Shown here piece after piece: positions 30,247-46,332 of a stretch of DNA of 64,000 bases (position 1 is its first letter; each line of letters opens with the position of its first letter). The stretch spans positions 76,817 through 140,816 of the forward strand of contig CAYREX010000003.1 of assembly GCA_964423505.1 (NCBI GenBank), given 5' to 3'. The notes below the pieces were generated by a model that was not told where the DNA came from, did no database searches, and worked only from the letters and a program-made list of their open reading frames with translations. This DNA comes from an uncultured bacterium (GTDB lineage Bacteria; Fermentibacterota; Fermentibacteria; Fermentibacterales; JCC-6). Position numbers and translations under genes: made by a program.

Positions 30247-30297
30247 GCACCCCCGCCCGGCAGACCAGACTCCGCAGGCCTGACGGCATCTCCCGGG

Positions 30298-31497
30298 TCA
30301 CTGCGCCAGCAGGTCCGGCTTTCGTCCATGCCCGTCGTCCAGCCCCTTGACCACATGCAGGTAGACCCTGGTGGTCTCCAGGCTCCTGTGCCCCAGCAGC
30401 TCCTGTATCTCACAGAGGTCGACGCCCTTCATCAGCAGGTGCGTGGCGAACGAATGCCGAAGCGTGTGCACCGTGGCGTGCTTCCGTACCCCGGACTCCC
30501 TGACGGCCCTTCTCATAGCCCTCTGCACAACCGAGTAGTGCATGTGGTGACGCCGCACCGCACCCGACTCCGGGTCGACCGAGGGCCCAGACGCCGGGAA
30601 CAGGTACTGCCACTTCCACTCCAGGCCTGCCCCCGGGTACTTCCTCTCCAGAGCGAAGGGAAGCGATACCGGCACTCTCTCCCCGCTGAAGCCGTCCCTG
30701 ACCCGCTCCAGCTGCTCCTCGAGAGCAGGCACCAGAGACCTGCTGAGCAGGGTCACCCTGTCCTTGTCCCCCTTGCCTCCCCGGACCGTCAGGGAGCACC
30801 CGTCCGGGTCCAGGTCCTGCACGCGAAGCGACAGGGCTTCACCCAGCCTGAGACCGCTCGAGTAGATGATGCGCAGCACCAGCCCGGCCACTCCGTCCAC
30901 AAGCGACAGCACCCTGGACACCTCGGCAGGGGAGAGGACCACAGGCAGCCTCTTCGGCTTCCGAGCCCGAACCGCGTCGATGCCCTCCGGCTCCCTTCCC
31001 CATACGTTCCGGAACAGGAAGAGCACCGCGTTGAAGGCCTGATTCTGCGTTGACGATGCAACCTTCTTCCTCAGCGCCAGGAAGGACATGTAGTCTCGGA
31101 AGGAGGAATCCTCCCTCGGCTCCAGCTCCCGCTCCCGACAGAAGCAGAGGTACTTCCGGGACCAACCAGAGTAGGTCTTCACGGTGCTCCTGGAGTAGTG
31201 CCGGACCCGCAGCGCATCCACCAGCGCGGCTACCGGATCGGATGAAACCGAGACAGCCTCGTTACCCTCCTCGACACCCGCGAACCTGGAGTAGAGCTTC
31301 ACCGCATCCAGAGCCTGCCTGATCTGCCAGTCCTTCCGCCCCTCCTTCTCGAGCGCATCCGCATACTCATGCTCTCCCGGCCGTCCCAGAGCCCGGTAAT
31401 GCCTGACCCACCAGAGCATGAAAGGGACCTGCTTCTCCCGCACCAGCTTCAGCGACTGCAGATACTCCTCGAATCCATCAATAGAAGCCCGAGTCAT
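30298..31497 (-). CDS. intI: Integron integrase (IntI-family tyrosine recombinase) with about 70-aa N-terminal extension
   Basis: Long colinear similarity to IntI1 as I recall it: RLPVVLSPAEV, GLRLGEALSLRVQDLD, GKGDKDR, the IntI-specific insertion LPFALERKYPGAGLEWKWQYLFPAS, ...SGAVRRHHM, HTLRHSFATHLL and LGHRSLETTRVYLHV. Start set at the ATG 31497 preceded by GGTGGGAGGG. The 5' 100 codons of the longer ORF are AT-rich and belong to attI/cassette 1. Confidence 0.9.
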   Translation of the reverse strand: MTRASIDGFEEYLQSLKLVREKQVPFMLWWVRHYRALGRPGEHEYADALEKEGRKDWQIRQALDAVKLYSRFAGVEEGNEAVSVSSDPVAALVDALRVRHYSRSTVKTYSGWSRKYLCFCRERELEPREDSSFRDYMSFLALRKKVASSTQNQAFNAVLFLFRNVWGREPEGIDAVRARKPKRLPVVLSPAEVSRVLSLVDGVAGLVLRIIYSSGLRLGEALSLRVQDLDPDGCSLTVRGGKGDKDRVTLLSRSLVPALEEQLERVRDGFSGERVPVSLPFALERKYPGAGLEWKWQYLFPASGPSVDPESGAVRRHHMHYSVVQRAMRRAVRESGVRKHATVHTLRHSFATHLLMKGVDLCEIQELLGHRSLETTRVYLHVVKGLDDGHGRKPDLLAQ

Positions 31498-31527
31498 ATT
31501 GCCCTCCCACCTATACGGCTGCAGCAT

Positions 31528-31684
31528 AACAACGCCATTCCCAGCGTTAGTGTACGCATGTTCACTACCCCTTGTCAAGATACAAGCATTGACTAGCAGT
31601 AGCCGTGCAGCTATTCTCATGCAGCGTAACCAGGCAGCCGGCATACACAGCAGCCGCAGAATCATTGTTAGAGCTAAGGAAAAA
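31528..31684 (+). promoter_or_regulatory. Putative attI / cassette promoter (Pc) region of the integron
   Basis: Located between the intI start and the first cassette ORF. TTGACT (31589-31594), 17 bp, TATTCT (31612-31617) is oriented toward the cassettes. A GTTAGAG box at 31667-31673 resembles the attI1 GTTRRRY crossover site. A GTAC-N4-GTTC palindrome at 31551-31562 lies upstream of intI. Confidence 0.35.
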
Positions 31685-32638
31685 ATGGGAAACAGAAGTA
31701 GAGCTGAAATCTGGAAACAACAGAAATACAACAACTCCTGTGCTTGGGATTGCTTATCCATGCTTCTCAAAACGCAAGGAGTTGAAACAAGCTCCATCGA
31801 GCTTGTCGGTTCAACTCAGGTTCCCTACCAACTCCGTCTTCATCCAGAAGAGAATCGACTTACTGCAGGTATGCTCGTTCAAGCCGATGAAAATGTTAAT
31901 CTTGCACTCGGGCAATACGGCTTTAAACTTCAGAGCACTAGAGTATCGACAATCGCTGAATACGTTAAGCTCGCAGAGGAAACATTACTTTCTGGGGAAG
32001 CCTTCGTCACAAGTATTAAGAGACCAGATGATTTGCCAGGAAGACATGCCGTGGTTTTCACAGGATTAGAAGATTCAATCTTTAAAGGGCTTGATCCTGA
32101 TTGCCGTCTTGATCGAACTACGGACTATCACTACTCCGATGTTCATGATATCGTAACTCTTGATCTTGAGCAAGAAGAATTCCATCAAAGGGTTACTGGC
32201 GATACAGGGTATGTTCCACTTCTTGGTGTACTAGTTTCCTGCGACCCTTTCAAGATCAATCCTGAAATAATGAAAAATATGTTCAGTAGAAGTAAGGAAG
32301 CTCTTGATTTCTATGAGTCTGCTACAGGTGAACTTGACTTCCAGAGCTCCAAATCGATGCCTGTTATCTACAATGTGCTAAAACCTGTTTTATCTGACTT
32401 ACGAACAGCAATCGAAATCCGAGATGAGTATCAGAATCGAGATTCAGAGATTGCCTTATTCCTGAAAGAATTTGAAACCGGAATCCTGGAGTTTCGGAAA
32501 CTAACAAAGAATAATGAAGCAATACCGGAGAAACTTACCGAGAGATTGAGTGCTTCCCTTGCAAGATCTTACGAACTTCTTGAGAAGCACCTGTCTTTTG
32601 AGATGTACAGAAGAAAAGAGGCTCTAACCACTGAATGA
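31685..32638 (+). CDS. Cassette 1: putative papain-like (C39-like) cysteine peptidase
   Basis: AAGGA RBS then ATG at 31685. N-terminal QQKYNNSCAWDCLSMLLKTQG resembles the catalytic Cys block of C39/papain-fold peptidases. AT-rich codon usage. Stop lies inside attC1. Confidence 0.55.
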   Translation: MGNRSRAEIWKQQKYNNSCAWDCLSMLLKTQGVETSSIELVGSTQVPYQLRLHPEENRLTAGMLVQADENVNLALGQYGFKLQSTRVSTIAEYVKLAEETLLSGEAFVTSIKRPDDLPGRHAVVFTGLEDSIFKGLDPDCRLDRTTDYHYSDVHDIVTLDLEQEEFHQRVTGDTGYVPLLGVLVSCDPFKINPEIMKNMFSRSKEALDFYESATGELDFQSSKSMPVIYNVLKPVLSDLRTAIEIRDEYQNRDSEIALFLKEFETGILEFRKLTKNNEAIPEKLTERLSASLARSYELLEKHLSFEMYRRKEALTTE

Positions 32639-32700
32639 ACCTGTCACAGCCGTCAAGGTACGGGCTACGTAATACCTGTGCAGGTTATTCAGATTGTTCG
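32621..32700 (+). repeat. attC site 1
   Basis: GCTCTAACCACTGAATGAACCTG ... CTGTGCAGGTTATTCAGATTGTTCGGC. R''/L'' almost identical to attC11, 3' box GTTCGGC. Confidence 0.55.
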
Positions 32701-32717
32701 GCATAGGAAAGGGGATA

Positions 32718-33128
32718 GAAGTGCAGAAACTAATCACATGTGCGCTGATCGTTCTGACTTGTTCGATCGTGCTTGCGGGTGAGGTAGCGGACGAGGTGAC
32801 CTTCAGGACAGCGCAACCTGCTCCAACCGATATCATATCCTGGAGTTTCTTCTGGGTGATGCCTGAGATTGCACCGGATGCAACGCTTGAATATGCGGTG
32901 ATCCAGCCTGATGGTGAGGAGTATTTCCGGATGGCTATTCCTGCTGAAACTCCATCAGGAAGTCCAATTCGCTCGGATTTCCGTGAAGGTCTTGCCGGTG
33001 GCAATCCGGAGGTATTCAGCGGTCATAACATCCAGTTCACTTTCACAGTGGACATCGGCACAATCCAGTTCCCGGATGGTGCAACATTCCTCTTCGAGTT
33101 CACAGAAGTCGTCGAGGCAGTTAGATAG
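32718..33128 (+). CDS. Cassette 2: small secreted hypothetical protein
   Basis: GTG start after AAAGGGGA. Signal peptide LITCALIVLTCSIVLAG. Confidence 0.45.
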   Translation, partial: EVQKLITCALIVLTCSIVLAGEVADEVTFRTAQPAPTDIISWSFFWVMPEIAPDATLEYAVIQPDGEEYFRMAIPAETPSGSPIRSDFREGLAGGNPEVFSGHNIQFTFTVDIGTIQFPDGATFLFEFTEVVEAVR

Positions 33129-33134
33129 GGATTG

Positions 33135-33211
33135 CCGAACAACTGCATGAACCATCTACGAGCGGAGCTGTTTGAGCTAGGTGGTCGTAATGGTTATGCA
33201 GAGCGTTCGAA
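33135..33211 (+). repeat. attC site 2
   Basis: GCCGAACAACTGCATGAACCAT ... ATGGTTATGCAGAGCGTTCGAA. Family-1 attC, 3' box GTTCGAA. Confidence 0.6.
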
Positions 33212-33225
33212 GACGAGGAAGAAGC

Positions 33226-34074
33226 GATCGCGCTATGAAAGTCTCGTTCACACTGAAACCCGACCAGAAGTTGATTCTTCGCATTCTTCGCGAGGCGGGC
33301 AAAGTCCATTACCCAGTCCTACGCCGAGTTCTAGAGGCGATTGAGCATTCCGAGTCCGATTTCGACGCCTTCGTGAAGGCGGTCGCTGACAAAAGGGAGT
33401 TCGATTTCCGACCCGACTGGCAGAAACCAAAGCTGACGGAGTTGGAACGTACCCTCGAGGGATTGCTCTTCGTTGGTCTGATCGAACAGTCATTCCACTC
33501 GGATGGACAAATCAGAGTCTTCATGGGGGACACCGGCCTGACCAACAGTGACATTGCTCTCACGACCGAAGGCGAGAGAGTCGCCAAGAGCATCAAGGAG
33601 GAGCGACGCCTAATTCTGAGGCCGGCACCGACACGGCGCACCACAATCTTCGTCGCCTGTGCTTTCGGGCATGATGAGGTCGATTTGCTTTATGAGAAGC
33701 ACTTCCTTCCCGCGTGCCAAAGTGCGAACTACGAGGCAGTCCGAGTGGATATGACCGAACCGAAGCAGAGCATCACAGAAGCGATTCTCGAGGGTATTAC
33801 GGAGTGTGCTTGCGTCATCGCCGATCTGACATACGCTCGACCTTCCGTCTACTTCGAGGTCGGTCTTGCCCACGGCCTCGGAATTCCGCTGCTCTTGACG
33901 TGCAGATCAGATCACCACCGGGGCAAGGCGGACGACAAGAAGGTTCACTTTGACCTCGAACAGTACAAAATCAGTTTCTGGAAGCAAACACCCAAGGGTG
34001 ATTTCAGTTGGCCAAAGAACATGAAGCCAACTGCACGTCTGTCTGCATTGGTGCCAAAGCGGACGGGAGAATGA
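33226..34074 (+). CDS. Cassette 3: wHTH domain fused to a nucleoside-2-deoxyribosyltransferase-like (Ndt/TIR-like Rossmannoid) domain
   Basis: C-terminal TIFVACAFGHDEVDLLY...ECACVIADLTYARPSVYFEVGLAHGLGIPLLL matches the Ndt-fold signature (F-E-x-G-x-A, active-site Glu). The N-terminal about 110 aa are wHTH-like. ATG 33226 is the first start outside attC2. Confidence 0.6.
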   Translation, partial: DRAMKVSFTLKPDQKLILRILREAGKVHYPVLRRVLEAIEHSESDFDAFVKAVADKREFDFRPDWQKPKLTELERTLEGLLFVGLIEQSFHSDGQIRVFMGDTGLTNSDIALTTEGERVAKSIKEERRLILRPAPTRRTTIFVACAFGHDEVDLLYEKHFLPACQSANYEAVRVDMTEPKQSITEAILEGITECACVIADLTYARPSVYFEVGLAHGLGIPLLLTCRSDHHRGKADDKKVHFDLEQYKISFWKQTPKGDFSWPKNMKPTARLSALVPKRTGE

Positions 34075-34085
34075 CAAAGAAGCTT

Positions 34086-34172
34086 CGAACAAGAGCGTGG
34101 AGCTCGACTTCGGGTTAGCCGCGCCGCTTCGCTCTGCGGCACCCCCGAAGCGGCTCACGCTCGACGTTAGCT
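34086..34172 (+). repeat. attC site 3
   Basis: CGAACAAGAGCGTGGAGCTCGAC ... GCTCACGCTCGACGTTAGCT. Third sequence family, 3' box GTTAGCT. Confidence 0.55.
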
Positions 34173-34179
34173 GGAAGGG

Positions 34180-34953
34180 ATGCAAATGCCTATCGGCAGA
34201 AATCGTGTTTTTGAAATCATCGGAACAAAGCCAAGAAATCCACAATGGGCCTGGTGCGCAATTTCTCCGAACTACGAAAGAGTTGTATTTACTCTATGGG
34301 CTGATGAATTACTCGGTGACAGATATCTATTGTTTAGAGATCGACGAACCAATTCGCTAAACCGCAGCGAAAGAGATCTAAAAGAGAAGCTCGATCTTGC
34401 AATGGAGATGAACATTCCAGCTTATGGGTTGGTATGCGAAGCGCGCAATGTAAATGCACCAATAAGAAAAATAGGAAAGGTACATGCAGATTATCTTGTC
34501 AAATTGAGATTGCAGAAGGACGAGGAAGGGATTTATGCAATAGATATTGGCAAGGTTCAACTTGCTGAGATTGTGAGTGAAGAGAAGGCTAAGAGAGAGG
34601 CAACGGAGAATAACGGTCTTAACGATATAAATTCAATCCCACCAGGTTCTGAGTCTCCTGATAGAGCCCATGTTGAGGGCTTAATAGTCAAGAGGGACCC
34701 CAAAGTCAGGCGGTATGTTATTGAACAAGCTGAAGGGAAGTGTGAGTTCTGCGGGAAGCAAGGGTTCCAAATGGACTCAGGTAGGAGGTATCTAGAAGCT
34801 CACCATGTAATCACACTCTCTAATCAGGGAGCTGATACTGTGGAAAATGTTATTGCATTATGTCCGGAACACCATAGAGAAGCACATTATGGGGTGAATG
34901 CAGAGGAGTTGGAAGAACAATTCTTGGAATGTATTAACAACAGAAACGGGTAA
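34180..34953 (+). CDS. Cassette 4: HNH endonuclease with unknown about 150-aa N-terminal domain
   Basis: C-terminal CEFCGKQGF...LEAHHVITLSNQGADTVENVIALCPEHHREAHYG is a canonical HNH finger. The N-terminal domain is uncharacterised. Confidence 0.75.
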   Translation: MQMPIGRNRVFEIIGTKPRNPQWAWCAISPNYERVVFTLWADELLGDRYLLFRDRRTNSLNRSERDLKEKLDLAMEMNIPAYGLVCEARNVNAPIRKIGKVHADYLVKLRLQKDEEGIYAIDIGKVQLAEIVSEEKAKREATENNGLNDINSIPPGSESPDRAHVEGLIVKRDPKVRRYVIEQAEGKCEFCGKQGFQMDSGRRYLEAHHVITLSNQGADTVENVIALCPEHHREAHYGVNAEELEEQFLECINNRNG

Positions 34954-34984
34954 GAGTCGCCTTCTGGAGACACACTATTATCAG

Positions 34985-35032
34985 CTAACAACAAAATGCA
35001 GCAGAACTGCGTGCAGGTGTTCAGAAGTAAGT
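34985..35032 (+). repeat. Possible short attC site 4
   Basis: GCTAACAACAAAATGCAGCAGAACTGCGTGCAGGTGTTCAGA. R''-like GCTAAC, short imperfect stem, 3' GTTCAGA. Confidence 0.35.
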
Positions 35033-35162
35033 GTATCGCAGTCTGCTGATTTTGAGTGTTGTGGGATTCAATGGCCGGCCTGCTGGCTAGCCCGGCGAAG
35101 GATGACAAGAGGACAAAGAGAACATATTTATGGTGTAGGCAATGCGAACAGATAGACACGGG

Positions 35163-35366
35163 ATGAAAATGGAATACGGATCAAAATCAATGCCCGCCCT
35201 AATCGCCAGCCCAGAACTCTATGCATCCCTTGCGAAGAACAAGCAGACCTACTGGACAACAGGAACCGGCCCGGCTCGAAGGCACGGAGCTTGGAGTATA
35301 GAGCTGCTGGAATACTGCCATAGTGGAGTGAATGGTATCAAGAAATATATGAGATCAAAGGCATAA
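35163..35366 (+). CDS. Cassette 5: possible small ORF (67 aa)
   Basis: Only ORF in the about 500-bp cassette between attC4 and attC5. Weak. Confidence 0.2.
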   Translation: MKMEYGSKSMPALIASPELYASLAKNKQTYWTTGTGPARRHGAWSIELLEYCHSGVNGIKKYMRSKA

Positions 35367-35462
35367 CGACATAAAGAAAACAAGGATAAAGCAAAGAGAA
35401 CAAAGGACATAGGACAAAGACAGGAGCTTGGGCGCAGGCAAGCAAGGAGACAATAGCTGCCC

Positions 35463-35543
35463 ACAACAACAGCATGAACCAGGCGCGGGGGGCAGTTGGA
35501 CGTGCGAGGGTAGTTCCCGCGCTGGTTATGCTGGATGTTATGT
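35463..35543 (+). repeat. attC site 5
   Basis: CACAACAACAGCATGAACCAGGCG ... CGCGCTGGTTATGCTGGATGTTATGT. Family 1, 3' box GTTATGT. Confidence 0.6.
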
Positions 35544-35562
35544 GAGATAGGGAGTATACGAA

Positions 35563-36243
35563 ATGGAAACAGTAGACATCATTTTAGAAGTACTGTTGTT
35601 ACTCGGTTTGCTGTATCTTGCTCTCTTCAAATCGTATTTTAAGGAGAAAGGGAAAAACCTAGCAACTCGGGAAGATATCCAGGAGATCACTTCTCTTGTT
35701 GAGACCTTAAGAGCAAAAATAGAATACTCATTGCAGGCGAAATTGGTACTAAGGCGAGAAGAGCATGAATCACTATTACACTACTACTCTTGTCTATCTA
35801 AGTGGATTCACACAATATCGAGCTTCAGTTTTGCAGGAATAACATACGATACATTACACATGATTAATGAAAGAATCAGTAGTGTGAACATATGCTATTC
35901 GGAAACGATATTGGCATTTTCAAAAGTAGAACTACTGGTTAATAATGATAAGTTGAGAGCAGAGGGCCATGGTCTGATTAGAAGAGTACTAAAATATCAA
36001 AATAGAACAATTAAGATGTGTGGTGACTATCATCTCTTATGTCTTGAGATCCATGCGGAAGAGAAAAGATTAAAGGATGGTGAGCGTGTTGAGGAATGGG
36101 CTAAAGTAATTGCAAAGCAACAAATAGCAATAAAGAAATACTATGAAGAGCAAGCTAGCGAATATGGAACTCTGTTAAGGTACATAATACCACATATGGA
36201 GACTATATCAGCACATTTAGAAGAGATCGTTAAGGAGGAGTGA
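35563..36243 (+). CDS. Cassette 6: hypothetical protein with N-terminal TM helix
   Basis: AT-rich ORF with TM helix ILEVLLLLGLLYLALF. Follows attC5 by 20 bp. Confidence 0.5.
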   Translation: METVDIILEVLLLLGLLYLALFKSYFKEKGKNLATREDIQEITSLVETLRAKIEYSLQAKLVLRREEHESLLHYYSCLSKWIHTISSFSFAGITYDTLHMINERISSVNICYSETILAFSKVELLVNNDKLRAEGHGLIRRVLKYQNRTIKMCGDYHLLCLEIHAEEKRLKDGERVEEWAKVIAKQQIAIKKYYEEQASEYGTLLRYIIPHMETISAHLEEIVKEE

Positions 36244-36299
36244 TAACTACTAATCACAAGAATAAATGCAATGAGATGTGGGCAAAACAGAGACCAGCA

Positions 36300-36379
36300 C
36301 ATAACCACAGCATGAACCAGCCGCGGGGCAGTTGAATATGCGAGGTTGATTCCCGCGCTGGTTATGCTGAGTGTTACAG
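36300..36379 (+). repeat. attC site 6
   Basis: ACCACAGCATGAACCAGCCGCGG ... CGCGCTGGTTATGCTGAGTGTTACAG. Family 1. Confidence 0.6.
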
Positions 36380-36523
36380 AAGTAGGACGGCGGCGTCTGA
36401 GAACATAGAGCAAACAGAATCGGGCACATCGGAAATCGGGCCCATAGAACAAGAAAAAGCCGCCGCCGTGAAAAAATAGGAAACCGGAGATCGGACAACC
36501 GGACAGCGACAGAGGAGACAGAG

Positions 36524-36600
36524 CCTGTAACAATGGGCTGTAGCTGAATCGCGCGACTGTACCGTCAACCTGTGCAATCAGCTAAGCCCAAGCGTTGTGG
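36524..36600 (+). repeat. attC site 7
   Basis: GTAACAATGGGCTGTAGCTGAATCGC ... CAATCAGCTAAGCCCAAGCGTTGTGG. Family 2, like attC8. Confidence 0.55.
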
Positions 36601-36626
36601 GTTGAAATGAAAAGAGGCATTCTAAG

Positions 36627-36869
36627 TTGGGAGGACAGCGTATGAAAGCGAAGAAGATATACTGGGCGAACCCCCATTCTGATGGAGGTTGGGCAGTTCA
36701 GAAATCTAGATTTGGAGGAACGATATCCAAGCATTCTACCCAATCCAGTGCATGGAAAACTGCTCGCCGCATGGCTTGCGGTACGGAATCAGATGCAATA
36801 CTGCAGGACCAGCAGAAGAGAATTGTGACAAGACATACATACTCAAATGAGACTTTAGAAGAAGATTAA
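36627..36869 (+). CDS. Cassette 8a: DUF2188-like small protein
   Basis: KKIYWANPHSDGGWAVQKSRFGGTISKHSTQSSAWKTARRMA fits the DUF2188 pattern as I recall it. Confidence 0.5.
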   Translation: MGGQRMKAKKIYWANPHSDGGWAVQKSRFGGTISKHSTQSSAWKTARRMACGTESDAILQDQQKRIVTRHTYSNETLEED

Positions 36870-36870
36870 T

Positions 36871-37731
36871 ATGCGAGCATATATACCTCTTGCGATAGTC
36901 TATGACTTCGATGGAACACTTGCTCCTGGCAACATGCAGGAAAGAGATTTCATTCCAGCAATTGGCATGACACAACAAGCGTTCTGGGATGAAGTCAATA
37001 GTGAAGCAAAACAACATCAGGCAGATAATATCCTCGTATATATGAAATTGATGCTAGATAAAGCTAGACAGGCTCAAGTAACAGTTCAAGAGGATGATTT
37101 CAAAGACTATGGACGTCGCCTGTCATTCTACGAAGGGATCTTGCCTAATGAAGAACAGTCAGATCCAGGTTGGTTCGCGAGAATCAATTATTATGGCAGA
37201 GGTGCTAGCATAGCAGTCAAGCACTATGTTGTCTCTTCAGGTATCCGAGAGATGATAAAGGGTACACGAATCGCAAACCAGTTTGAGGCGATTTTTGCAT
37301 CCTCATTTTGCTATGAACATCATGGTATTGCTGTATGGCCAGCCTTGGCTCTTAATTACACATCCAAGACGCAATATCTATTTAGGATTAATAAGGGCTG
37401 TCTTGATGTTAGCGAACATGTGCAAATTAACAAATACTTACCCGAAAATGATAGACCAGTACCGTTTAGGAACATGATCTATATTGGCGATGGAGCTACT
37501 GACATTCCTTGTATGCGAGTAGTAAAGGACAGGGGAGGTTGTACAATTGCTGTGTATAAGCCCCACACTCCTGGAGCCAGGGCCAATGTTCAACAACTTG
37601 TTAAAGAAGGTAGGGCAAACTGCATTGCATCAGCGAAATACAACGAAGGCAGTACTCTTGATAAGATAGTCAAGACATACATAGATCATCTGCAGTTCTA
37701 CTATGCATATAAGCGCTTGCAAGAAACATAG
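36871..37731 (+). CDS. Cassette 8b: HAD-superfamily hydrolase (phosphatase-like)
   Basis: HAD motif I VYDFDGTL, motif II VVSSG, motif IV IYIGDGATDIPCM. Starts 2 bp after the DUF2188 stop, in the same cassette. Confidence 0.7.
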   Translation: MRAYIPLAIVYDFDGTLAPGNMQERDFIPAIGMTQQAFWDEVNSEAKQHQADNILVYMKLMLDKARQAQVTVQEDDFKDYGRRLSFYEGILPNEEQSDPGWFARINYYGRGASIAVKHYVVSSGIREMIKGTRIANQFEAIFASSFCYEHHGIAVWPALALNYTSKTQYLFRINKGCLDVSEHVQINKYLPENDRPVPFRNMIYIGDGATDIPCMRVVKDRGGCTIAVYKPHTPGARANVQQLVKEGRANCIASAKYNEGSTLDKIVKTYIDHLQFYYAYKRLQET

Positions 37732-37733
37732 AG

Positions 37734-37818
37734 CCCACAACAAGCGGCTGTAGCGGAATTGCTGCCGGCCTGGGGGGGGGCTGAGTCTATCGCAATCCGC
37801 TAAGCCACAGCGTTATGC
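37734..37818 (+). repeat. attC site 8
   Basis: CACAACAAGCGGCTGTAGCGGAATTGC ... GCAATCCGCTAAGCCACAGCGTTATGC. Family 2. Confidence 0.6.
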
Positions 37819-37837
37819 GTAAATACGAACCGGAGAA

Positions 37838-38602: not shown

Positions 38603-38606
38603 AAGA

Positions 38607-38685
38607 GCGCATAACCAACGCATGAACCAGACGCTTGTAAGGGAATAGGTTAGGGTTACAGCGCTGGTTACGCGTATTGTTAAGT
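38607..38685 (+). repeat. attC site 9
   Basis: GCGCATAACCAACGCATGAACCAGACG ... CAGCGCTGGTTACGCGTATTGTTAAGT. Family 1. Confidence 0.6.
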
Positions 38686-38706
38686 AGCGATAGAAGGAAG
38701 AGCATA

Positions 38707-39381: not shown

Positions 39382-39454
39382 CAAGCGGCTGCAGCGGCAT
39401 TGCGGTAGGGTAGCAACCGGTATAGGTGCAATCCGCTGAGCCTTAGTGTTAGCA
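39378..39454 (+). repeat. attC site 10
   Basis: TAACAAGCGGCTGCAGCGGCATTGC ... GCAATCCGCTGAGCCTTAGTGTTAGCA. Family 2, nearly perfect stem. Confidence 0.6.
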
Positions 39455-39469
39455 TGGAAATGAGGAAGA

Positions 39470-40543
39470 ATGGGAAAAGCAGCGATTTTCCTTGGTGCTG
39501 GCGCTTCTAAGGCGGAGGGTGCTCCTCTGCAAGGAGAGTTGTTCACTGAATACTTTGCATCTGATGCATTCAAGAATAGCTATAAAGATATTGACAGAGA
39601 ACTTGCAACGTTTTTCCTCTGTAACTTCAGAATTGACCTAGACCATCAAGACATATCATCGATTAGCTTTCCCACATTCGAGGAAGTTCTTGGTTTGGTT
39701 GATCTTGCCATTCTTAGAAAAGAATCATTCCGAGAGTTTGAGATTGAGAATAGAGCATCCAACAGTGGGCGCTTAAGATTCATAGGCCAGTATCTTGTAT
39801 TTCTGTTGGCAAGGGTTCTAGATGATAAGCTGAAGGGTCACAACGGCATTCATCAGAAATTGGTACGAACACTACATGATACTGGTATTCTAAGAGATGT
39901 GACTTTTATAACTACAAATTATGACATACTTATCGACAATGCATTAGTAAAGCTGGAAAAGCATGATGTTGATGTTGACTACGGAATTGAGTTCCGTAAT
40001 TTCGGAACTCAAAACAATTGGCGACGCCCAAGAATGGATAAGAAGGTATCACTATACAAACCGCATGGATCGTTAAATTGGCTGCTATGCCCAACTTGCA
40101 GTGAACTCGATATTACACCGAAAGAGAAGGGAGTTGTCAGACTTATCTCTGATTTTGCAAATGCAACATGTCCAGAGTGCGAAAGTGTTTATGTGCCTCT
40201 CATTGTACCTCCGATATATTACAAAGATATGAGCAATGTATTCCTGAGTTCAATATGGAATCGAACTGATGCTTCTTTACGGAAAGTGGACCATGTAATC
40301 TTCTGCGGATATTCCTTTCCTGATGCTGATATGCATATTAAGTATTTAATGAAAAGAGCTCAGACTAATCGTAAAAACCCTCTTAGAATTACGGTTATGA
40401 ACTATCACCCAGGAAAAACAGAGTCAGAATCCAGAAGTGAAGAGAATAGGTACAAGCGGTTCTTAGGAAAACAAGTGAAGTATACAGATAAATCATTTGA
40501 ATGGTTTGCAGATAATCCTATGGATGTTTTGGGAAATTCTTGA
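39470..40543 (+). CDS. Cassette 11: standalone SIR2-like protein (SIR2_2 / DUF4020-type, predicted NAD+-consuming effector)
   Basis: N-terminal MGKAAIFLGAGASKAEGAPL (GAGxS motif of the SIR2_2 clade) and ...KPHGSLNW downstream. 357 aa, single gene between attC10 and attC11. Confidence 0.7.
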   Translation: MGKAAIFLGAGASKAEGAPLQGELFTEYFASDAFKNSYKDIDRELATFFLCNFRIDLDHQDISSISFPTFEEVLGLVDLAILRKESFREFEIENRASNSGRLRFIGQYLVFLLARVLDDKLKGHNGIHQKLVRTLHDTGILRDVTFITTNYDILIDNALVKLEKHDVDVDYGIEFRNFGTQNNWRRPRMDKKVSLYKPHGSLNWLLCPTCSELDITPKEKGVVRLISDFANATCPECESVYVPLIVPPIYYKDMSNVFLSSIWNRTDASLRKVDHVIFCGYSFPDADMHIKYLMKRAQTNRKNPLRITVMNYHPGKTESESRSEENRYKRFLGKQVKYTDKSFEWFADNPMDVLGNS

Positions 40544-40544
40544 T

Positions 40545-40622
40545 GCTAACCACTGCATGAACCAGCTACGAACAGATCTGATTGACCCGGGGTAGTCGTG
40601 CTGGTTATACAGAATGTTAGGC
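40545..40622 (+). repeat. attC site 11
   Basis: GCTAACCACTGCATGAACCAGC ... GTGCTGGTTATACAGAATGTTAGGC. 3' box GTTAGGC fits the GTTRRRY consensus and the 5' box is close to its reverse complement. Confidence 0.65.
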
Positions 40623-40641
40623 AGGAAAGGAGATACATGCC

Positions 40642-41070
40642 ATGTCGCTACACGCATCCGAGATTCTGGCATGTCCCAAGTGCGGACATAAACAGGCAAC
40701 TCTCATCTGGCAGTCGCTGAATGTTACCCTTGACCCCGGCCAGAAGCAGAACCTCTTTGATGGAAAGATAAATGTACTTGAATGCACGCAGTGCGGGAAC
40801 AAGGCATTCGTCGATGCACCTTTTCACTATCACGACATGAATCTCGAGTTTTACGTGCGGTATGTTCCCTTGGCATCTCTAGAGCATCCAGAGACATTTG
40901 ACGACTTTCTTGCGAATGGATTTCCATCCATGGAAGAGAACGAAGATATGGGAATACCGGCGGATTCATACTTGCGCACTATCCATATTGTTTTTGATAT
41001 GGGTGAATTGGTGCGCTATGTGATGTTCCGCGAATGTCTGGCCAACATCAAGCAAGGTAAGAAGGCCTAA
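40642..41070 (+). CDS. Cassette 12: CpXC-domain zinc-ribbon protein
   Basis: CPKCGHKQ ... CTQCGNKAF pairs characteristic of CpXC proteins. Confidence 0.6.
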   Translation: MSLHASEILACPKCGHKQATLIWQSLNVTLDPGQKQNLFDGKINVLECTQCGNKAFVDAPFHYHDMNLEFYVRYVPLASLEHPETFDDFLANGFPSMEENEDMGIPADSYLRTIHIVFDMGELVRYVMFRECLANIKQGKKA

Positions 41071-41126
41071 CCATCGAATAGAGGGTATCGGCGCATACGC
41101 GCCGAACCGTCATTGACACGTTCGGC
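41065..41126 (+). repeat. attC site 12 (short)
   Basis: GCCTAAC (41065-41071) ... perfect hairpin GCCGAACCGTCATTGACACGTTCGGC ... 3' box GTTCGGC. Confidence 0.45.
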
Positions 41127-41192
41127 TACCAGAACCGGACTTGCATCTCAGAGAGAGTATATGTATCTACATAGTAGAGACGGGAGGATACT

Positions 41193-41435
41193 ATGCTTGC
41201 ACGAATCCAGAAATGGGGCAACAGCCTAGCGGTTCGAATCCCCAAAGCCTTCGCGAAGGAAATGAACGTGTCTGATGGTGGAGCTGTCAACATGACAATC
41301 GATGACGGAAAGATCGTCATCAGTCCTGAGATAGAGCAGGTCTACCGACTGGATGACCTTCTGGAGGAGATAACCTCGGAGAATCTTCATGCTGAGGTCG
41401 AGTCCGGAGAGGTAGTTGGGCAGGAGATTTGGTGA
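41193..41435 (+). CDS. mazE: Cassette 13a: MazE/AbrB-type antitoxin
   Basis: IQKWGNSLAVRIPKAF (SpoVT/AbrB swapped-hairpin motif). Overlaps mazF by 7 bp. Confidence 0.75.
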   Translation: MLARIQKWGNSLAVRIPKAFAKEMNVSDGGAVNMTIDDGKIVISPEIEQVYRLDDLLEEITSENLHAEVESGEVVGQEIW

Positions 41436-41776
41436 AGACAGATGAGTGCTGCCCTGGGAGGGGGGATATCGTCTGGCTCTCCTTCACACCCCAGGCAGGC
41501 CATGAACAGGCAGGCATACGTCCTGCACTAGTCCTGTCTCCCAAATCGTACAACCGGAAAACAGGTCTTGCATTGTACTGTCCGGTTACGACAGTAGTGA
41601 AAGGCTATCCGTTCGAGGTTGCCATTCCACCTGACCTTGAGGTTTCCGGAGTTATTCTATCGGACCAAGTGAAGAGCCTGGACTGGAGAGCACGAAAGGC
41701 AGAGTTAATCTGCAGACTCCCAGATGCCGTGACCAGAGAAGTACTCGGCAAGGTGGGCACTCTTGTTCGGGACTAG
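41429..41776 (+). CDS. mazF: Cassette 13b: MazF/PemK-family endoribonuclease toxin
   Basis: GDIVWLSFTPQAGHEQAGIRPALVLSPKSYNRKTGLALYCPVTT matches PemK/MazF. Confidence 0.8.
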   Translation: MVKTDECCPGRGDIVWLSFTPQAGHEQAGIRPALVLSPKSYNRKTGLALYCPVTTVVKGYPFEVAIPPDLEVSGVILSDQVKSLDWRARKAELICRLPDAVTREVLGKVGTLVRD

Positions 41777-41779
41777 AGA

Positions 41780-41859
41780 GCCGAACAGCAGCATGAACCA
41801 GCCAACAGGGCAGAGCTGATCGAACGGGTGTTCCGTGCTGGTTATGCTGAGTGTTCGAG
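41780..41859 (+). repeat. attC site 13
   Basis: GCCGAACAGCAGCATGAACCAGCC ... CGTGCTGGTTATGCTGAGTGTTCGAG. Family 1. Confidence 0.6.
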
Positions 41860-41908
41860 TTCCGGCATGACTTGACAACCACCACCATAGAGGTATAGAT
41901 ATTATACC

Positions 41909-42169
41909 ATGGTGTTCGAATACGATGCTCGTAAGAGCAAGAGAAACTTGGAGAAGCACGGGATCGACTTCGAGGAGTCGCAGCTTCTCTGGGATGATCC
42001 GGACCTGCTGGAGATTCCGGCAAGGACCGAAGATGAAACGCGATTCATGGTGATCGGTCGGATAGACAGCTCCCATTGGTCTGGGATCATCACCTATCGC
42101 GGAGAGGCGGTTCGAATCATCTCCGTCCGCAGATCCCGTAACGAGGAGGTGGTGCTGTATGAAGGCTAA
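41909..42169 (+). CDS. brnT: Cassette 14a: BrnT (DUF497) ribonuclease toxin
   Basis: MVFEYDARKSKRNLEKHGIDFEESQLLWDDP matches the BrnT N-terminus. Confidence 0.75.
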   Translation: MVFEYDARKSKRNLEKHGIDFEESQLLWDDPDLLEIPARTEDETRFMVIGRIDSSHWSGIITYRGEAVRIISVRRSRNEEVVLYEG

Positions 42170-42386
42170 GGACCTGGACAAGAAGTTCGATGACGGTGAG
42201 GATGTCCTCAGATACCTCGAACTCAGCAAGGCCCGTCGTGTTGAGCAGGAGCAGAAGCGAGTCAATGTGGACTTCCCCATTTGGATGATTCACTCGCTGG
42301 ACAAGGAAGCAAAGCGACTGGGTATTCCCAGGCAGTCCCTGATCAAGATGTTGATCGCCAGGCATATCGAGGAAGCCAGAGCATAG
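42159..42386 (+). CDS. brnA: Cassette 14b: BrnA (CopG/RHH-like) antitoxin
   Basis: Overlaps brnT by 11 bp. C-terminal ribbon-helix-helix-like IPRQSLIKMLIARHIEEA. Confidence 0.7.
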   Translation: MKAKDLDKKFDDGEDVLRYLELSKARRVEQEQKRVNVDFPIWMIHSLDKEAKRLGIPRQSLIKMLIARHIEEARA

Positions 42387-42391
42387 AGACT

Positions 42392-42462
42392 CGAACAAGC
42401 GGCTGCATTGGTCTTGCAGCATTGCGACACCTGACAGAGGACAACGCATAGTGCTTCTTAGT
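42392..42462 (+). repeat. attC site 14 (diverged)
   Basis: CGAACAAGCGGCTGCATTGGTCTTGCAGCATTGCGAC... has a family-2-like 5' half and a degenerate 3' half. Confidence 0.4.
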
Positions 42463-43116
42463 GGACACCCAGATCCGCGCACTTCTGAGAGGAGCCCGAG
42501 CACCAGATATTCCTGAGGTTGAGTACCCACTCTATCTCATGCGGTCTTCCGTGCCCAGGCTCCGGTGGAAGGATGTTATGGCGGCAAGCATAATGCAAGA
42601 GCACGGGCGGAGCGTCCGTAGCCTTGCGCGGGATCTGGGTGTCCATTGACAGGAGTATCTGGTATTCGAGTCTATCACGGTCCTGGATACCGGGTCTGCT
42701 TCAAGAATCGGGGGAAGAGCCTGGTGATCATATTGGCCGGTGGTGACAAGCGGACACGAAAGAAGATCGAGAAGGCGTTGCGCCTGGCACGAGATCTATC
42801 GGAGAGAGAGAAGAGAATTAGCAGGACCAAGACTACTCGATTCGAAACCGCTGAGCATCGTCGAGCTCCAGAGAAAATGGCCGCACATCTTGAAGCATGC
42901 CTTGAGGAGTCCAACGGAGATGCGGCGTTTGTAGCGAAGGCACTCGGAGATATCGCGAAAGCAAAGGGAATGACGCAGGTTGCACGCGATGCTGGTCAGT
43001 CTCGAGAGCCTGTACAAGGCTCTGTCGGGCAAACGTACACCCCGGTTCGACACCCTTCTGAGAGTAGCACATGCCCTCGGGATGGAGCTTCACGCGGCAC
43101 CACTGAATCGCTGAAA
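42461..43116 (+). pseudogene. Cassette 15a: decayed higB-like (addiction-module killer, COG3657) / higA-like (antidote) toxin-antitoxin pair
   Basis: IRVYHGPGYRVCFKNRGKSLVIILAGGDKRTRKKIEKALRLARDL matches the killer C-terminus. It runs without a stop into the antidote sequence KTTRFETAEH...MAAHLEACLEESNGDAAFVAKALGDIAKAKGMTQVARDAG. The antidote C-terminus (SLYKALSGKRTPRFDTLLRVAHALGMELHAAPLNR, ending 43116) is in a different frame after a 2-nt loss in a GAGAG run near 43003. The killer N-terminus is also out of frame. Confidence 0.5.
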
Positions 43117-43193
43117 TCGACTGGCCAACAACAGCATGCAGCTGGAAAGCTGCTGATGTTGAGCGTTCGGCCTTATGAAATGAGAGGTGCAGC

Positions 43194-43610
43194 ATGGGAG
43201 CTATAGCAGACTCGATCATCGCGTACGCGAAACCGCTGCTCGACGAAGCTGATGGTTCACTCGAGGACATGAACAATGCCTTGTCACTTGCTCAGCTATG
43301 TTGGAATCTCGCACTGTTACCGGAAAAGGAACGTGACGCAAGACTCGCAAAGATGCAGTCGGCCCTCGCGATGGATGACACGGAATTCGAGGATTTCCGG
43401 CAATCGATCGTCCTGCCGATGATCCAGAGGCACCATGACATGTTTCCTAACATGCCCAGGCACGGGTCTGCGAAGGCGTCGAGAGCAAGGGTGCAACCGC
43501 AGCGACGGGCGGCGGCAACGCCGCAGGCAAAGAGATATCCTGGAACTGCACGCAACGCGCCGTGCCCGTGCAATAGCGGAAAGAAGTACAAACGTTGTTG
43601 CGGACGGTAG
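43194..43610 (+). CDS. Cassette 15b: UPF0149/YecA-like protein with C-terminal SEC-C zinc motif
   Basis: C-terminal APCPCNSGKKYKRCCGR is the SEC-C metal-binding motif. Confidence 0.6.
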   Translation: MGAIADSIIAYAKPLLDEADGSLEDMNNALSLAQLCWNLALLPEKERDARLAKMQSALAMDDTEFEDFRQSIVLPMIQRHHDMFPNMPRHGSAKASRARVQPQRRAAATPQAKRYPGTARNAPCPCNSGKKYKRCCGR

Positions 43611-43651
43611 GCTGGCATCGTTGTCCACGGAACGCGTGCGAAGAGCTGGCC

Positions 43652-43733
43652 AAACAAGCGCCTGCAGTTGAACGGGCACGTCCGGCCGCTTCGCGGGGTC
43701 GCGCACCCGTCTACTGAGGCGCACCGTTATGCC
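43652..43733 (+). repeat. attC site 15 (GC-rich variant)
   Basis: CAAACAAGCGCCTGCAGTTGAACGGGCACG ... CGCACCCGTCTACTGAGGCGCACCGTTATGC. Family-2-like ends, 3' box GTTATGC. Confidence 0.45.
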
Positions 43734-43774
43734 GCTTCTGGAGAGGCAACGCTAACTCGGAGGAAGCTGTTCGC

Positions 43775-44578
43775 ATGAAGCTCGCAGACGTTAGCCCCGA
43801 GACAGAGGTCACGTTTCTGCACTGCCTGCATGATGAGAGGCGGGACGACCCCCGAGTGATGGAGATGCGGCGCCGGTGGTTTCACGCTCAGCGGGATCAC
43901 GGGCTCCGCGGAAAGGTCCTCGTGCTGGACACGGGGGAAGTTGCCGGGCTCTGCCAGTACATGCCTATCGAGAGAACCTTCATGGTGGGCAGCGCTCTTC
44001 TCGCGATTCTGTGTATCTGGGTTCATGGGTACGAGCATCTCGTCGGGAACGTCCAGGGCAATGGGTACGGCAGGTATATGCTGGAGTCGATCGAGCGTGA
44101 CGCCCGAGAGAGCGGGAAGCTGGGTGTATCTGCCTGGGGAATGGACTTCCCCCACTGGAATCCTGTGTCCTTCTACGAGCATATGGGCTACACCAGGGCC
44201 GACAAGTCGGGCATGGCGGTCCTCGTGTGGAAGCCCTTCTCAGAGAGCGCCGTAGCGCCCCGTTTCCTTCGCCCCGTGCGCCGCCCGGTGGGCCGCCCGG
44301 ACAAGGTGTCGCTGGCAGTCTTTGTCAACGGGTGGTGCATGGGTTCCTGCGAGCAGTCCGTACTGGCACGCGAGGCGGTGGACGGGCTCGAGTGCTTCGT
44401 AGACTACATGGAGCTCGACGGCTCGGACCCGGACGTTCAGCGTTCGTGGGGTATCTCCGACGGTGTCTATCTCCAGGGTGAGCCATACCGTCCGCATGAG
44501 CCGCCATGGACGAGCGAAGTCCTCAGGCGCGATCTGCTCGATCGCATCGAGATTGAGGGCGGGGGAGGCAGGGGATAG
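43775..44578 (+). CDS. Cassette 16: GNAT-family acetyltransferase with C-terminal Cys-containing extension
   Basis: N-terminal acetyltransferase fold (...VLVLDTGEVAGLCQYMP...GNGYGRYMLESIERDARESGKLGV...). C-terminal about 100 aa with a VNGWCMGSCEQ motif. Confidence 0.55.
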   Translation: MKLADVSPETEVTFLHCLHDERRDDPRVMEMRRRWFHAQRDHGLRGKVLVLDTGEVAGLCQYMPIERTFMVGSALLAILCIWVHGYEHLVGNVQGNGYGRYMLESIERDARESGKLGVSAWGMDFPHWNPVSFYEHMGYTRADKSGMAVLVWKPFSESAVAPRFLRPVRRPVGRPDKVSLAVFVNGWCMGSCEQSVLAREAVDGLECFVDYMELDGSDPDVQRSWGISDGVYLQGEPYRPHEPPWTSEVLRRDLLDRIEIEGGGGRG

Positions 44579-44699
44579 AACGAAGCGGAGTAACCAGCGT
44601 GTGCAGCCGACGCGTCTGTCACGGCGGCTGCAGGCGAAGCTTCGCCGCAGGCATCCGCCGAGCCAGCCCCCGGGCTGATCATGTTCCTTCGGGGCACCA
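44578..44699 (+). repeat. Possible attC site 16 (long, GC-rich)
   Basis: AACGAAGCGGAGTAACCAGCG ... internal palindrome TGCAGCCGACGCGTCTGTCACGGCGGCTGCA ... GCATCCGCCGAGCC ... GTTCCTT. The ends resemble the family-2 attCs. Confidence 0.35.
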
Positions 44700-44800
44700 C
44701 GTTGGAGCCCTGGGTCTGCGGATACCTCGGGTACGGGACGGGGCATCCTTCTATCCTGGATGTCTCGAGAGGAGGATGCCGAGCGATCGGGCTCTGGACG

Positions 44801-45463
44801 ATGAGCGATGAGATCCGCGTTCAGCGGGGCTTTCCGGACGAGTACCGTCCGAAGGCGGCGGAGCTGTACGATGCCGCCTTCGGAGCCAAGCTCTCGGCGG
44901 CCATGCCCGACCCCGTCTCGCGCAAGGCCGTTCTGGAGGAGGGATTGAACCCCCGGTTCTCCCTGGCCGCGCTGAGCGGTGGTGAGATGGTCGGCATCGC
45001 CGGCTTCAGGACTGAGTCGGGATCTCTGACGGGCGGGATATCGTACGGACTGCTCAGGGCGCGACTCGGGTTCCTCGGGGCGATTCGAGCTGTCCCCCTC
45101 CTTGTGCTGCTCGAGCGGAAGCAGACACCGGGAGAGCTGCTGATGGACGGGATAGGCGTCTCGCCCCGGATGCGCGGCAGGGGCATCGGGACCAGGCTCC
45201 TCCGCGGTCTACTGGAGTATGCGGCAGAGGAGGGGTACCTGTCGGTCCGCCTCGATGTCATCGACACGAACCGTGGGGCAAGGCGCCTGTACGAGCGCGT
45301 CGGGTTCGTGCCCGTGAGAGTCCAGAGGTTCGGATACCTGAAACGGCTGCTCGGCTTCGGGGCGGCTACGCGGATGGAGTACCGCCTCGGCTCCCGGGCC
45401 CGACCGGGCGCGGCACCAGCACCTGGCGGCCCCGTGCCGGCAGTGGAAGGATCGAAGGAATGA
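44801..45463 (+). CDS. GNAT-family N-acetyltransferase
   Basis: Acetyl-CoA-binding motif IGVSPRMRGRGIGTRLLRGLLEYAAEEG...RLYERVGF. Start moved to MSDEIRV. Confidence 0.7.
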   Translation: MSDEIRVQRGFPDEYRPKAAELYDAAFGAKLSAAMPDPVSRKAVLEEGLNPRFSLAALSGGEMVGIAGFRTESGSLTGGISYGLLRARLGFLGAIRAVPLLVLLERKQTPGELLMDGIGVSPRMRGRGIGTRLLRGLLEYAAEEGYLSVRLDVIDTNRGARRLYERVGFVPVRVQRFGYLKRLLGFGAATRMEYRLGSRARPGAAPAPGGPVPAVEGSKE

Positions 45464-46332
45464 GCGACGCGCTTCACATCACAAGCGGCGACTGCGCGGG
45501 GGATAGTCTCAGGGAGGCCGGGCTGGCCGGCGAGGTCCTGGTCTGGCGGGACATCCTCTACGACGGTCCCCGGTCCCCCGGCTGGCCGGACTGGAAGACC
45601 CTGGAGGCTCGTGCGGCCTTCCTGGCGGAGGAAACCGGGGGCGGACTCGACGGGAAGACCGTCCGGGAGACGCTTCTCCGCCAGTACCGCGCTCTCGAAG
45701 CGGCAGCGCCGGGAAGGCACGTCGTGCTCTGGTTCGATGCGTGCCTCTTCGACCAGGCCATGCTTGCGCACATACTCGCCTGCCTGCACCATCTCGATGC
45801 CGGCGGGGCGGAGCTGCTCTGCGTCGACTCGTTCCCGGGGATAGAGCCCTTCCACGGGCTGGGGCAGCTGCGGCCGGGGCAGCTGGCCTCGCTGTACGGA
45901 GACCGGCGGCCGGTCACCGACGAGCAGTACGCCTTCGCGGGTCGGGTGGACGAGGCGTTCGCCACGCGGGATCTCCTCTTGCTGACCGGGTTGTCCCGCA
46001 TGGAAGAAGCTCCGCTGCCGTGGGTCCCGGCCGCCGCCGCCCGGTGGCTGCAGGAGCGGCCCGACCCGGTAACCGGGCTGGGGAGGCTCGAGACCCTGGC
46101 CCTGGAGGCCATCCGCGGCGGGGTCCGGACGCCAGGGGAGGTCTTCGAGGCCGTTGCCGCGGCGGACACCCCTCCGCAGTACTGGGGAGACACGACGCTC
46201 TGGGCGAAGGTCAACGCCCTGGCGGAGCGTGAGCCGCCACTGGTTGAGATAGAGGGGCCAGGGGAGAGGCTGCCCCAGTGGGAGAGCGATGTGCCGCTGG
46301 AGGAGTTCTCGATAAGGGCGCTGACCGACTAG
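45460..46332 (+). CDS. DUF1835-domain protein
   Basis: N-terminal LHITSGDCAGDSLREAG...VLVWRDILYDGP resembles DUF1835. Start overlaps the GNAT stop (ATGA). Confidence 0.65.
   Translation: MSDALHITSGDCAGDSLREAGLAGEVLVWRDILYDGPRSPGWPDWKTLEARAAFLAEETGGGLDGKTVRETLLRQYRALEAAAPGRHVVLWFDACLFDQAMLAHILACLHHLDAGGAELLCVDSFPGIEPFHGLGQLRPGQLASLYGDRRPVTDEQYAFAGRVDEAFATRDLLLLTGLSRMEEAPLPWVPAAAARWLQERPDPVTGLGRLETLALEAIRGGVRTPGEVFEAVAAADTPPQYWGDTTLWAKVNALAEREPPLVEIEGPGERLPQWESDVPLEEFSIRALTD

Follow-up and report, generated by a model that had tools for sequence, protein, structure and literature searches.

The stretch analysed here (the window: 64,000 nucleotides of contig CAYREX010000003.1, assembly GCA_964423505.1, forward strand) comes from an uncultured bacterium of the Fermentibacterota with a genome rich in guanine plus cytosine (GC), and we read the element that begins at 30298 in it as a complete sedentary chromosomal integron, with a probability of roughly 93%. 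Its layout is the canonical one, as the initial annotation of this sequence had described it: the integrase gene intI lies on the minus strand, the attI site and a putative cassette promoter (Pc) adjoin it, and about sixteen cassettes follow on the plus strand. The reading is carried by the identity of the integrase, the architecture and covariation of the attC sites, the cassette boundaries, the conserved core of attI and the chromosomal context; the coordinates are collected in Table 1.

The product of intI, which has GGAGGG and an ATG in front of its open reading frame (ORF), scores 329.5 bits against TIGR02249, the NCBIfam model of integron integrases (cutoff 265), and fails the XerC (133.3 bits, cutoff 335) and XerD (123.8 bits, cutoff 330) equivalogs. 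Its best relative of solved structure is VchIntIA (2a3v; E 3.5e-68 over residues 94-383), and the stretch ALERKYPGAGLEWKWQYLFP aligns with the IntI-specific insertion of that protein (residues ~205-225), which bears out the insertion reported in the initial annotation. The same structure is the top fold match of the AlphaFold model of IntI (predicted local distance difference test, pLDDT, 87; template modelling, TM, score 0.77-0.81, E 1e-22), the match to XerA being weaker (E 1e-13). The catalytic residues R217, K242, H344, R347, H370, and Y379 align to those of VchIntIA and are invariant or nearly so in 66 homologues. Judging from these comparisons, the recombinase is an IntI rather than a Xer protein, as had been proposed. 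From the N-terminus onwards, it consists of an extra four-helix region, a SAM-like domain and the catalytic domain with the IntI-specific insertion.

The attC sites were located by hand and with scripts; an ungapped inverted-repeat search recovered few of them, since bulges break the arms. Fifteen are intact and one more, attC14, is a 5' half-site, the whole series spanning 32622-43732. All intact sites lie on the plus strand, each 3' of a plus-strand gene or gene pair, begin with xxxxAAC, end with GTTxxxx and form palindromes of R''-L''-loop-L'-R' architecture. Such palindromes had been noticed in the initial annotation and are indeed present, although their measured length is 49-89 nt and not up to 120 bp as stated there. 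Among the 13 sites that were aligned, the AAC, TG-A, T-A, and GTT positions are invariant while the centre is variable. Pairing as an R stem, a small loop and a bulged L stem is kept in 87% of the cells overall and in 95.8% of those of the L stem, where 11 of the 13 pairs show compensatory changes with both sides altered, and it falls to ~30% once the partners are slid by 1-3 columns. With DNA energy parameters, the bottom strands adopt a fold in which a small internal loop separates the R stem from the L stem, and the latter has two single-base bulges, one at position 16 and the other at 23 or 24 (numbered from the 3' end); canonical attC sites have bulges at these positions with a 6-bp stem between them (Nivina et al., 2016, PMC5027507). 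In the window, most of the spacer that separates the R from the L boxes is paired.

The covariance model built from the 13 aligned sites, applied unfiltered to both strands of the window, gave 14 matches at E ≤ 5e-9, all of them on the plus strand at 32.6-43.7 kb and including the held-out attC15 (49 nt, 39.9 bits), with nothing else at E < 0.03; as an approximation to the covariance check that the initial annotation had suggested, this speaks for attC sites, confined to the array. Of the matches at E ≤ 0.01 that the same model gave in intI loci of many phyla (80 loci, 0.92 Mb), all 37 lie on the side of intI that bears the cassettes, and on the cassette strand. In a class 1 integron it recovers the aadA1 attC, correctly oriented (26.1 bits, E 2.4e-5), and not those of blaIMP-1 and aac. 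Rfam scans at gathering and permissive thresholds matched no attC and yielded nothing of relevance within the array.

The boundaries of the cassettes are modular. At 14 successive junctions, from attI (GTTAGAG) to the R'' box of attC14, the reverse complement of R'' reproduces, 7/7, the core with which the cassette that carries it begins on its 5' side, and the fit in cassette 16 is 6/7; against the downstream R' of their own site the same R'' boxes agree in only 3-6 of 7 positions. This complementarity is the signature of formerly circular units that entered by crossover between G and TT. It also validates two sites of unusual form, namely the half-site attC14 and the atypical attC12, which the model misses, whose R'' and R' fit the neighbouring cassettes 7/7 and whose bulges are at 16 and 23.

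Between intI and the first cassette lie 170 bp that can be aligned with the same region in nine other Fermentibacterota loci, and four blocks are conserved in them: a palindrome, the -35 box on the minus strand, the promoter on the plus strand (TTGAC and TATTCTC of the putative Pc) and the core AATCATTG followed by TT. In nine related loci AATCATTGTT is conserved and the similarity stops directly after GTT, which is why the attI crossover is predicted between G31667 and T31668; read on the opposite strand, the heptamer GTTAGAG that starts at this G (31667-31673) is identical to the R'' box of attC1. Two related loci provide indirect evidence that platforms of this type are active. L084 and L085, from the Joint Genome Institute metagenomes 3300028822 and 3300022700, encode one and the same IntI (P0016); their attI sequences agree fully up to GTTGT, after which the two contigs diverge completely, which indicates different first cassettes in the two samples and suggests a recent turnover of cassettes in a relative.

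The palindrome AGTGTACGCATGTTCACT overlaps the -10 box of the putative intI promoter, occurs once within the 64 kb (chance expectation 0.01) and is kept at the same place in eight related Fermentibacterota loci. Its position is that of the LexA boxes in class 1 and Vibrio integrons, where the SOS/LexA system controls intI via a box at the promoter (PMC3108266). By analogy, this suggests a candidate operator at which a repressor, probably of the SOS/LexA kind, would control the integrase. By eye, the palindrome resembles the GAAC-N4-GTTC type of box (Gram-positive LexA); a description of the LexA motif for the host phylum was looked for and not found.

Taken together, these parts allow the following scheme. 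IntI, transcribed divergently from the array, would act on circular cassettes whose attC sites are folded as single-stranded hairpins and would recombine these with attI in its double-stranded form, so that, with the cut at the predicted crossover, new cassettes would enter beside Pc and be read on the plus strand. Recombination between two attC sites would excise cassettes and reshuffle them.

Several points nevertheless weigh against reading the element as a complete sedentary integron. The recombination activity just outlined is predicted from sequence, and so is the use of Pc and of the intI promoter, both of which are consensus matches to a consensus that may not be that of the host phylum. 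The covariance model was trained on the window's own sites, and it fails to detect attC12 and, aadA1 apart, most attCs of class 1. The base at position 16 of the bottom strand is C in 13 of the 15 sites (T in attC12), the usual base in the literature being G, which the aadA1 attC carries in a side-by-side comparison; C also predominates in attCs of other phyla (15 of 29), in a sample that was selected by the model and is hence biased. The independent contigs break near the distal end of the array, as described below. Finally, the array is heterogeneous in its attC sites (mean column identity 58%, at least four subtypes), unlike the uniform repeats of the Vibrio type. Both attC sequence families quoted in the initial annotation are present, but its conclusion that cassettes were recruited from more than one pool is not borne out: the subtypes share one framework (AAC-N8-TG-NA ... 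T-A ... GTT) and co-occur in the arrays of other Fermentibacterota, attC8 being 89% identical to an attC in L084, and one phylum-wide pool would explain them. When metagenomes were scanned for the exact pattern of the family-A attC, only two contigs came up, both small arrays, a result that gives little information.

As to the host, the nearest IntIs (55-68% identical) come from metagenome-assembled genomes (MAGs) of Candidatus Fermentibacteria, Aegiribacteria, and Sabulitectum and are already labelled as integron integrases, while the identity falls to 40-48% in other phyla; related Fermentibacterota entries include the proteins P0007, P0017, and P0026 and the loci L001-L006 and L082-L085. 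Among the relatives on record none is closer than 68% for IntI or 76% for ThiC. All named nearest matches of both proteins belong to the Fermentibacterota; they suggest that the IntI relationships follow the host phylogeny, and they place the host in this phylum. The initial annotation had found no match to any described integron; no named class fits indeed, but the closest IntIs (60-68%) had been annotated as integron integrases before. Our literature search found no paper on integrons of Fermentibacterota.

The integron is embedded in flanks of host GC, which extend ~30 kb to one side of it and 17 kb to the other. They carry housekeeping genes, encode an epimerase, a cyclophilin, ThiC, MgtE and a protein of the type IX secretion system (T9SS) type, and showed no transposition, transposase, Tni or plasmid genes. 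The thiamine pyrophosphate (TPP) riboswitch lies directly upstream of thiC, which is an ordinary arrangement. The weak C-terminal CHU_C signal of the 1204-residue protein fits the T9SS-bearing host that had been supposed. In agreement with the initial annotation, intI has a host-like GC content (0.64, against 0.68 in the host) and the proximal cassettes are AT-rich, the values being 0.38-0.59 over the whole array, that is, a gap of 10-30 points. There is no significant monotonic gradient of GC along the array (Spearman rho 0.31, p 0.26); a steady rise is seen only in its last five units.

The AT-rich array could, in principle, belong to another organism and have been joined by a faulty assembly to a GC-rich contig with a lone integrase. 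The drop of GC from 0.64-0.68 to 0.42 within ~200 bp of intI is abrupt, and assemblies often break in arrays of repeated attC sites; most of the related intI contigs stop at the array, whereas the window contains the whole array and both flanks. However, a contig of another assembler (Logan contig L081, run SRR15425350) reproduces 29491-33162 at 100% identity and so spans the flank, intI, attI and cassettes 1-2. The attI region is, moreover, continuous with intI, conserved in relatives as far as the crossover point itself and matched 7/7 by the R'' of cassette 1. The same drop of GC occurs in the high-GC relatives L083 and L084 (hosts of 65% GC, cassette sides of ~46-48%), and the contrast is a property of the lineage. 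At the distal end, two stretches, 42592-44759 and 43305-44755, recur in Logan contigs from SRR15425350 and SRR15425351, which cover cassette 15 to 44.76 kb, and a third contig covers 44739-46771 and continues into the host flank; L091, L092, and L093 together tile 42592-46771. The contigs break at 44739-44759 in two runs and no single one spans the distal junction, the overlap consisting of 21 nt that occur once in the window. This seems to be a branch of the assembly graph ~1 kb past the last attC, possibly because strains differ at this end of the array. Since independent contigs span the proximal junction and tile the distal one, we see no mis-join, including at 31.5 kb, where the initial annotation had considered one, and regard a chimera as very improbable.

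It is likewise highly unlikely that the element is a mobile integron or that its array sits on a transposon, plasmid or genomic island. The heterogeneity of attC is as in mobile integrons, the GC of the cassettes is foreign to the host and the neighbourhood of intI varies among related genomes; against this, the flanks are those of a chromosome, free of mobility genes, the nearest relatives of IntI belong to the same phylum as those of the host ThiC, IntI is only 42.6% identical to IntI1 (residues 80-384) and under the cutoff of the IntI1-type equivalog NF011946 (253 bits, cutoff 435), which speaks against membership in the mobile classes 1-5, and the 15 intact attC sites and the half-site exceed the 10 sites proposed as the threshold for sedentary integrons (PMC9024848). 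The array thus has the number of sites and the chromosomal location of a sedentary integron and no link to a transposon or plasmid; it lacks the highly similar attC sites seen within the arrays of Vibrio and Xanthomonas, a usual trait of such integrons and not a strict requirement. As for the idea that the palindromes are repetitive extragenic palindromic (REP) sequences or terminators beside a Xer-like recombinase, they do form hairpins at the 3' ends of genes, and their top and bottom strands fold about equally well. It is already contradicted, and deserves next to no credence, because T-tract terminators are absent at these elements, which are confined to the array and to one strand; invariant AAC/GTT ends and cassette-specific complementarity of R'' and R' are foreign to REPs and terminators; elsewhere the model finds such sites beside intI only, as well as the aadA1 attC; and the recombinase passes the IntI model and fails those of Xer.

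The integron contains sixteen cassettes (31668-43726): thirteen intact ones in a row, two fused and then one intact. The fusion can be traced in some detail. After brnTA only the 5' half of attC14 is left (nhmmer E 0.14), its R'' fitting the R' of attC13 7/7, and the frame 42646-43206 runs from the C-terminal half of a RelE-type toxin into its antidote, of which the N-terminal two thirds are left, with partial matches to TIGR02683 and TIGR02684; the half-site and this toxin-antidote fusion indicate that two cassettes decayed into one unit ending at attC15. Beyond attC16, the last supported site, neither the attC element placed at ~44.6 kb in the initial annotation nor its right boundary at 46332 could be upheld. 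A seventeenth attC at ~44588-44689 (possible relic 44616-44670) was rejected for want of a covariance-model match and with an nhmmer E of 16, and no complement of GTTATGC was found downstream of attC16. The GNAT-like ORF at 43775-44578 (GC 0.63) is without an attC of its own, and the two ORFs at 44681-46332 (GC 0.69) are host-like and bear no signs of cassettes. The array accordingly ends at ~43.7 kb, the last supported attC lying ~2.6 kb short of the boundary first drawn.

By similarity to hidden Markov models, the cargo includes the toxin-antitoxin systems MazEF and BrnTA and the decayed RelE-type pair, and an anti-phage-type set: the SIR2-like protein; the HNH endonuclease of cassette 4 (PF01844), which resembles type IV methyl-directed restriction enzymes (PADLOC mREase_IV, 84.2 bits); the candidate defence genes PDC-S34 (the HAD-family ORF of cassette 8, 383 bits) and PDC-S43 (cassette 9, 154.5 bits); and, weakly, the TIR/deoxyribosyltransferase-like protein of cassette 3 (Pfam PF05014 at 28.7 bits, slightly under the cutoff; PADLOC TIR effector at E 3e-6). 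The rest comprises CpXC, SEC-C-motif and DUF2188 proteins, several ORFs of no family and one cassette without an ORF. A cargo of this composition is common in chromosomal integrons in general. Defence functions of these cassettes are predicted from such matches, and the cargo fits the role of stores of phage-defence cassettes that recent work describes for integrons (10.1101/2024.07.02.601719; PMC12614218). Comparison of the cassette ORFs with related loci showed none shared at high identity, the only matches being MazF (33%) and BrnT (40%). The ORF of cassette 2 seems to have a hydrophobic N-terminus like that of a signal peptide (translation read by eye), and the 74-residue ORF of cassette 5 stands between long A-rich untranslated stretches. 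The ORF-less cassette 7 was considered as a structured RNA and rejected as such, its fold z-score of -1.4 being not significant and no Rfam match being found.

Table 1. Coordinates of the integron and of neighbouring features in the window (putative and predicted features are marked as such).
Feature	Position	Strand	Description
intI	30298-31497	-	integron integrase, 399 aa; TIGR02249, VchIntIA match
Extra N-terminal region of IntI	31243-31497	-	residues 1-85; four helices, residues ~6-72
Putative intI promoter	31549-31578	-	-35 TTGACA 31578-31573, -10 TACACT 31554-31549; promoter scan
Imperfect palindrome AGTGTACGCATGTTCACT	31549-31566		overlaps -10 of putative intI promoter
Putative Pc	31589-31617	+	TTGACT-17-TATTCT, faces array; promoter scan
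attI core	31658-31673	+	GAATCATTG followed by TTAGAG; predicted crossover between the two
Cassette 1	31668-32696	+	ORF 31685-32638, 317 aa, no family; attC1 32622-32702; GC 0.42
Cassette 2	32697-33205	+	ORF 32721-33128, 135 aa; attC2 33134-33211
Cassette 3	33206-34166	+	ORF 33235-34074, nucleoside 2-deoxyribosyltransferase/TIR-like; attC3 34084-34172
Cassette 4	34167-35058	+	ORF 34180-34953, HNH endonuclease; attC4 34983-35064
Cassette 5	35059-35537	+	ORF 35142-35366, 74 aa, no family; attC5 35461-35543
Cassette 6	35538-36373	+	ORF 35563-36243, 226 aa, no family; attC6 36299-36379; GC 0.38
Cassette 7	36374-36594	+	221 bp, without plausible ORF; attC7 36525-36600
Cassette 8	36595-37812	+	DUF2188 ORF 36627-36869, HAD-family ORF 36871-37731; attC8 37735-37818
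Cassette 9	37813-38679	+	helix-turn-helix + DUF3024 ORF 37838-38602; attC9 38609-38685
Cassette 10	38680-39448	+	ORF 38707-39381, no family; attC10 39376-39454
Cassette 11	39449-40616	+	SIR2-like ORF 39470-40543 (PF13289, PADLOC SIR2 models); attC11 40544-40622
Cassette 12	40617-41120	+	CpXC ORF 40642-41070; attC12 41065-41126, atypical, 62 nt
Cassette 13	41121-41853	+	mazE 41193-41435, mazF 41429-41776; attC13 41780-41859
Fused cassettes 14+15	41854-43165	+	brnT 41909-42169, brnA 42159-42386; attC14 remnant 42390-42424; attC15 43123-43171
Cassette 16	43166-43726	+	SEC-C-motif ORF 43194-43610; attC16 43649-43732, last supported attC
thiC	24039-25337	-	nearest named matches same phylum, 68-76% identity
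TPP riboswitch	25326-25417	-	60.2 bits, over gathering score; directly upstream of thiC
T9SS-type protein	46379-49993	-	1204 aa; lamin-tail, CARDB, FlgD-Ig; weak C-terminal CHU_C type IX secretion signal

One more feature of this integrase is the extra domain at its N-terminus, which VchIntIA and IntI1 are without. Its helices (residues 6-72) are modelled with pLDDT 77-95, W30 is invariant and the motif DWQIRQAldAVkLY is conserved; the domain is also present in relatives of many phyla, including the cultured Prosthecochloris vibrioformis DSM 260 (L077). By fold it comes closest to archaeal Xer proteins and XerA, namely to their N-terminal core-binding domains (TM 0.67-0.74, best E 0.036), and a profile comparison with the SAM-like domain of IntI itself gives a weak match (E 6e-4, probability 28%); a search against the sequences of solved structures found no match under E 0.2. 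The domain is probably a duplicated core-binding domain.

Compared with known systems, the integron is most readily set beside the Vibrio cholerae superintegron, with which it shares the divergent intI, attI and, as predicted here, Pc, a long chromosomal array of mostly promoterless cassettes, toxin-antitoxin ones among them, an IntI with the same specific insertion and attC bulges at 16 and 23/24. It differs in having 16 cassettes instead of ~180, heterogeneous attC sites (58% identity) instead of near-identical Vibrio cholerae repeats (VCR), C instead of G at position 16 and a mostly paired R-L spacer, as well as in belonging to a host of another phylum and in the gap of 10-30 points between host and cassette GC. 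With class 1 mobile integrons it has in common the logic of the platform and a palindrome placed like their LexA box; in contrast to them, it is not on a transposon or plasmid, has neither a 3' conserved segment nor resistance cassettes, and its attI is of unrelated sequence. The integrons in other Fermentibacterota MAGs are like it in the N-terminal extension of IntI, the palindrome, the two putative divergent promoters, the core AATCATTG with the following TT, the attC subtypes (up to 89% identical) and the AT-rich cassette sides. The differences from textbook integrons are thus matters of degree. To our knowledge, there are no named classes of chromosomal integrons.

One could go further and suppose that the integrons of the Fermentibacterota type, together with a wider environmental clade of ~400-residue IntIs, represent a mechanistic variant with three joint traits. 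The second, duplicated four-helix domain of core-binding type might read accessory attI sites; the bulged C in place of G at position 16, with an almost fully paired R-L spacer, may be another trait, and an AT-rich cassette pool common to hosts of 46 to 68% GC may be the third. We consider this supposition doubtful. A sedentary chromosomal integron of the usual kind, as we read the element, adds a new host lineage and no new kind of element, and leaves the understanding of integrons unchanged.

What the window does offer is a fully assembled integron, with its platform, its whole array and both flanks, from a phylum known only from metagenomes. It documents the Fermentibacterota attI core, the putative divergent promoters with a conserved operator-like palindrome, the attC subtypes and a cargo that is mostly of toxin-antitoxin and anti-phage type. 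The gap in GC between host and cassettes, which recurs in the high-GC relatives, makes it a clean case for the study of where cassettes originate and how they travel.

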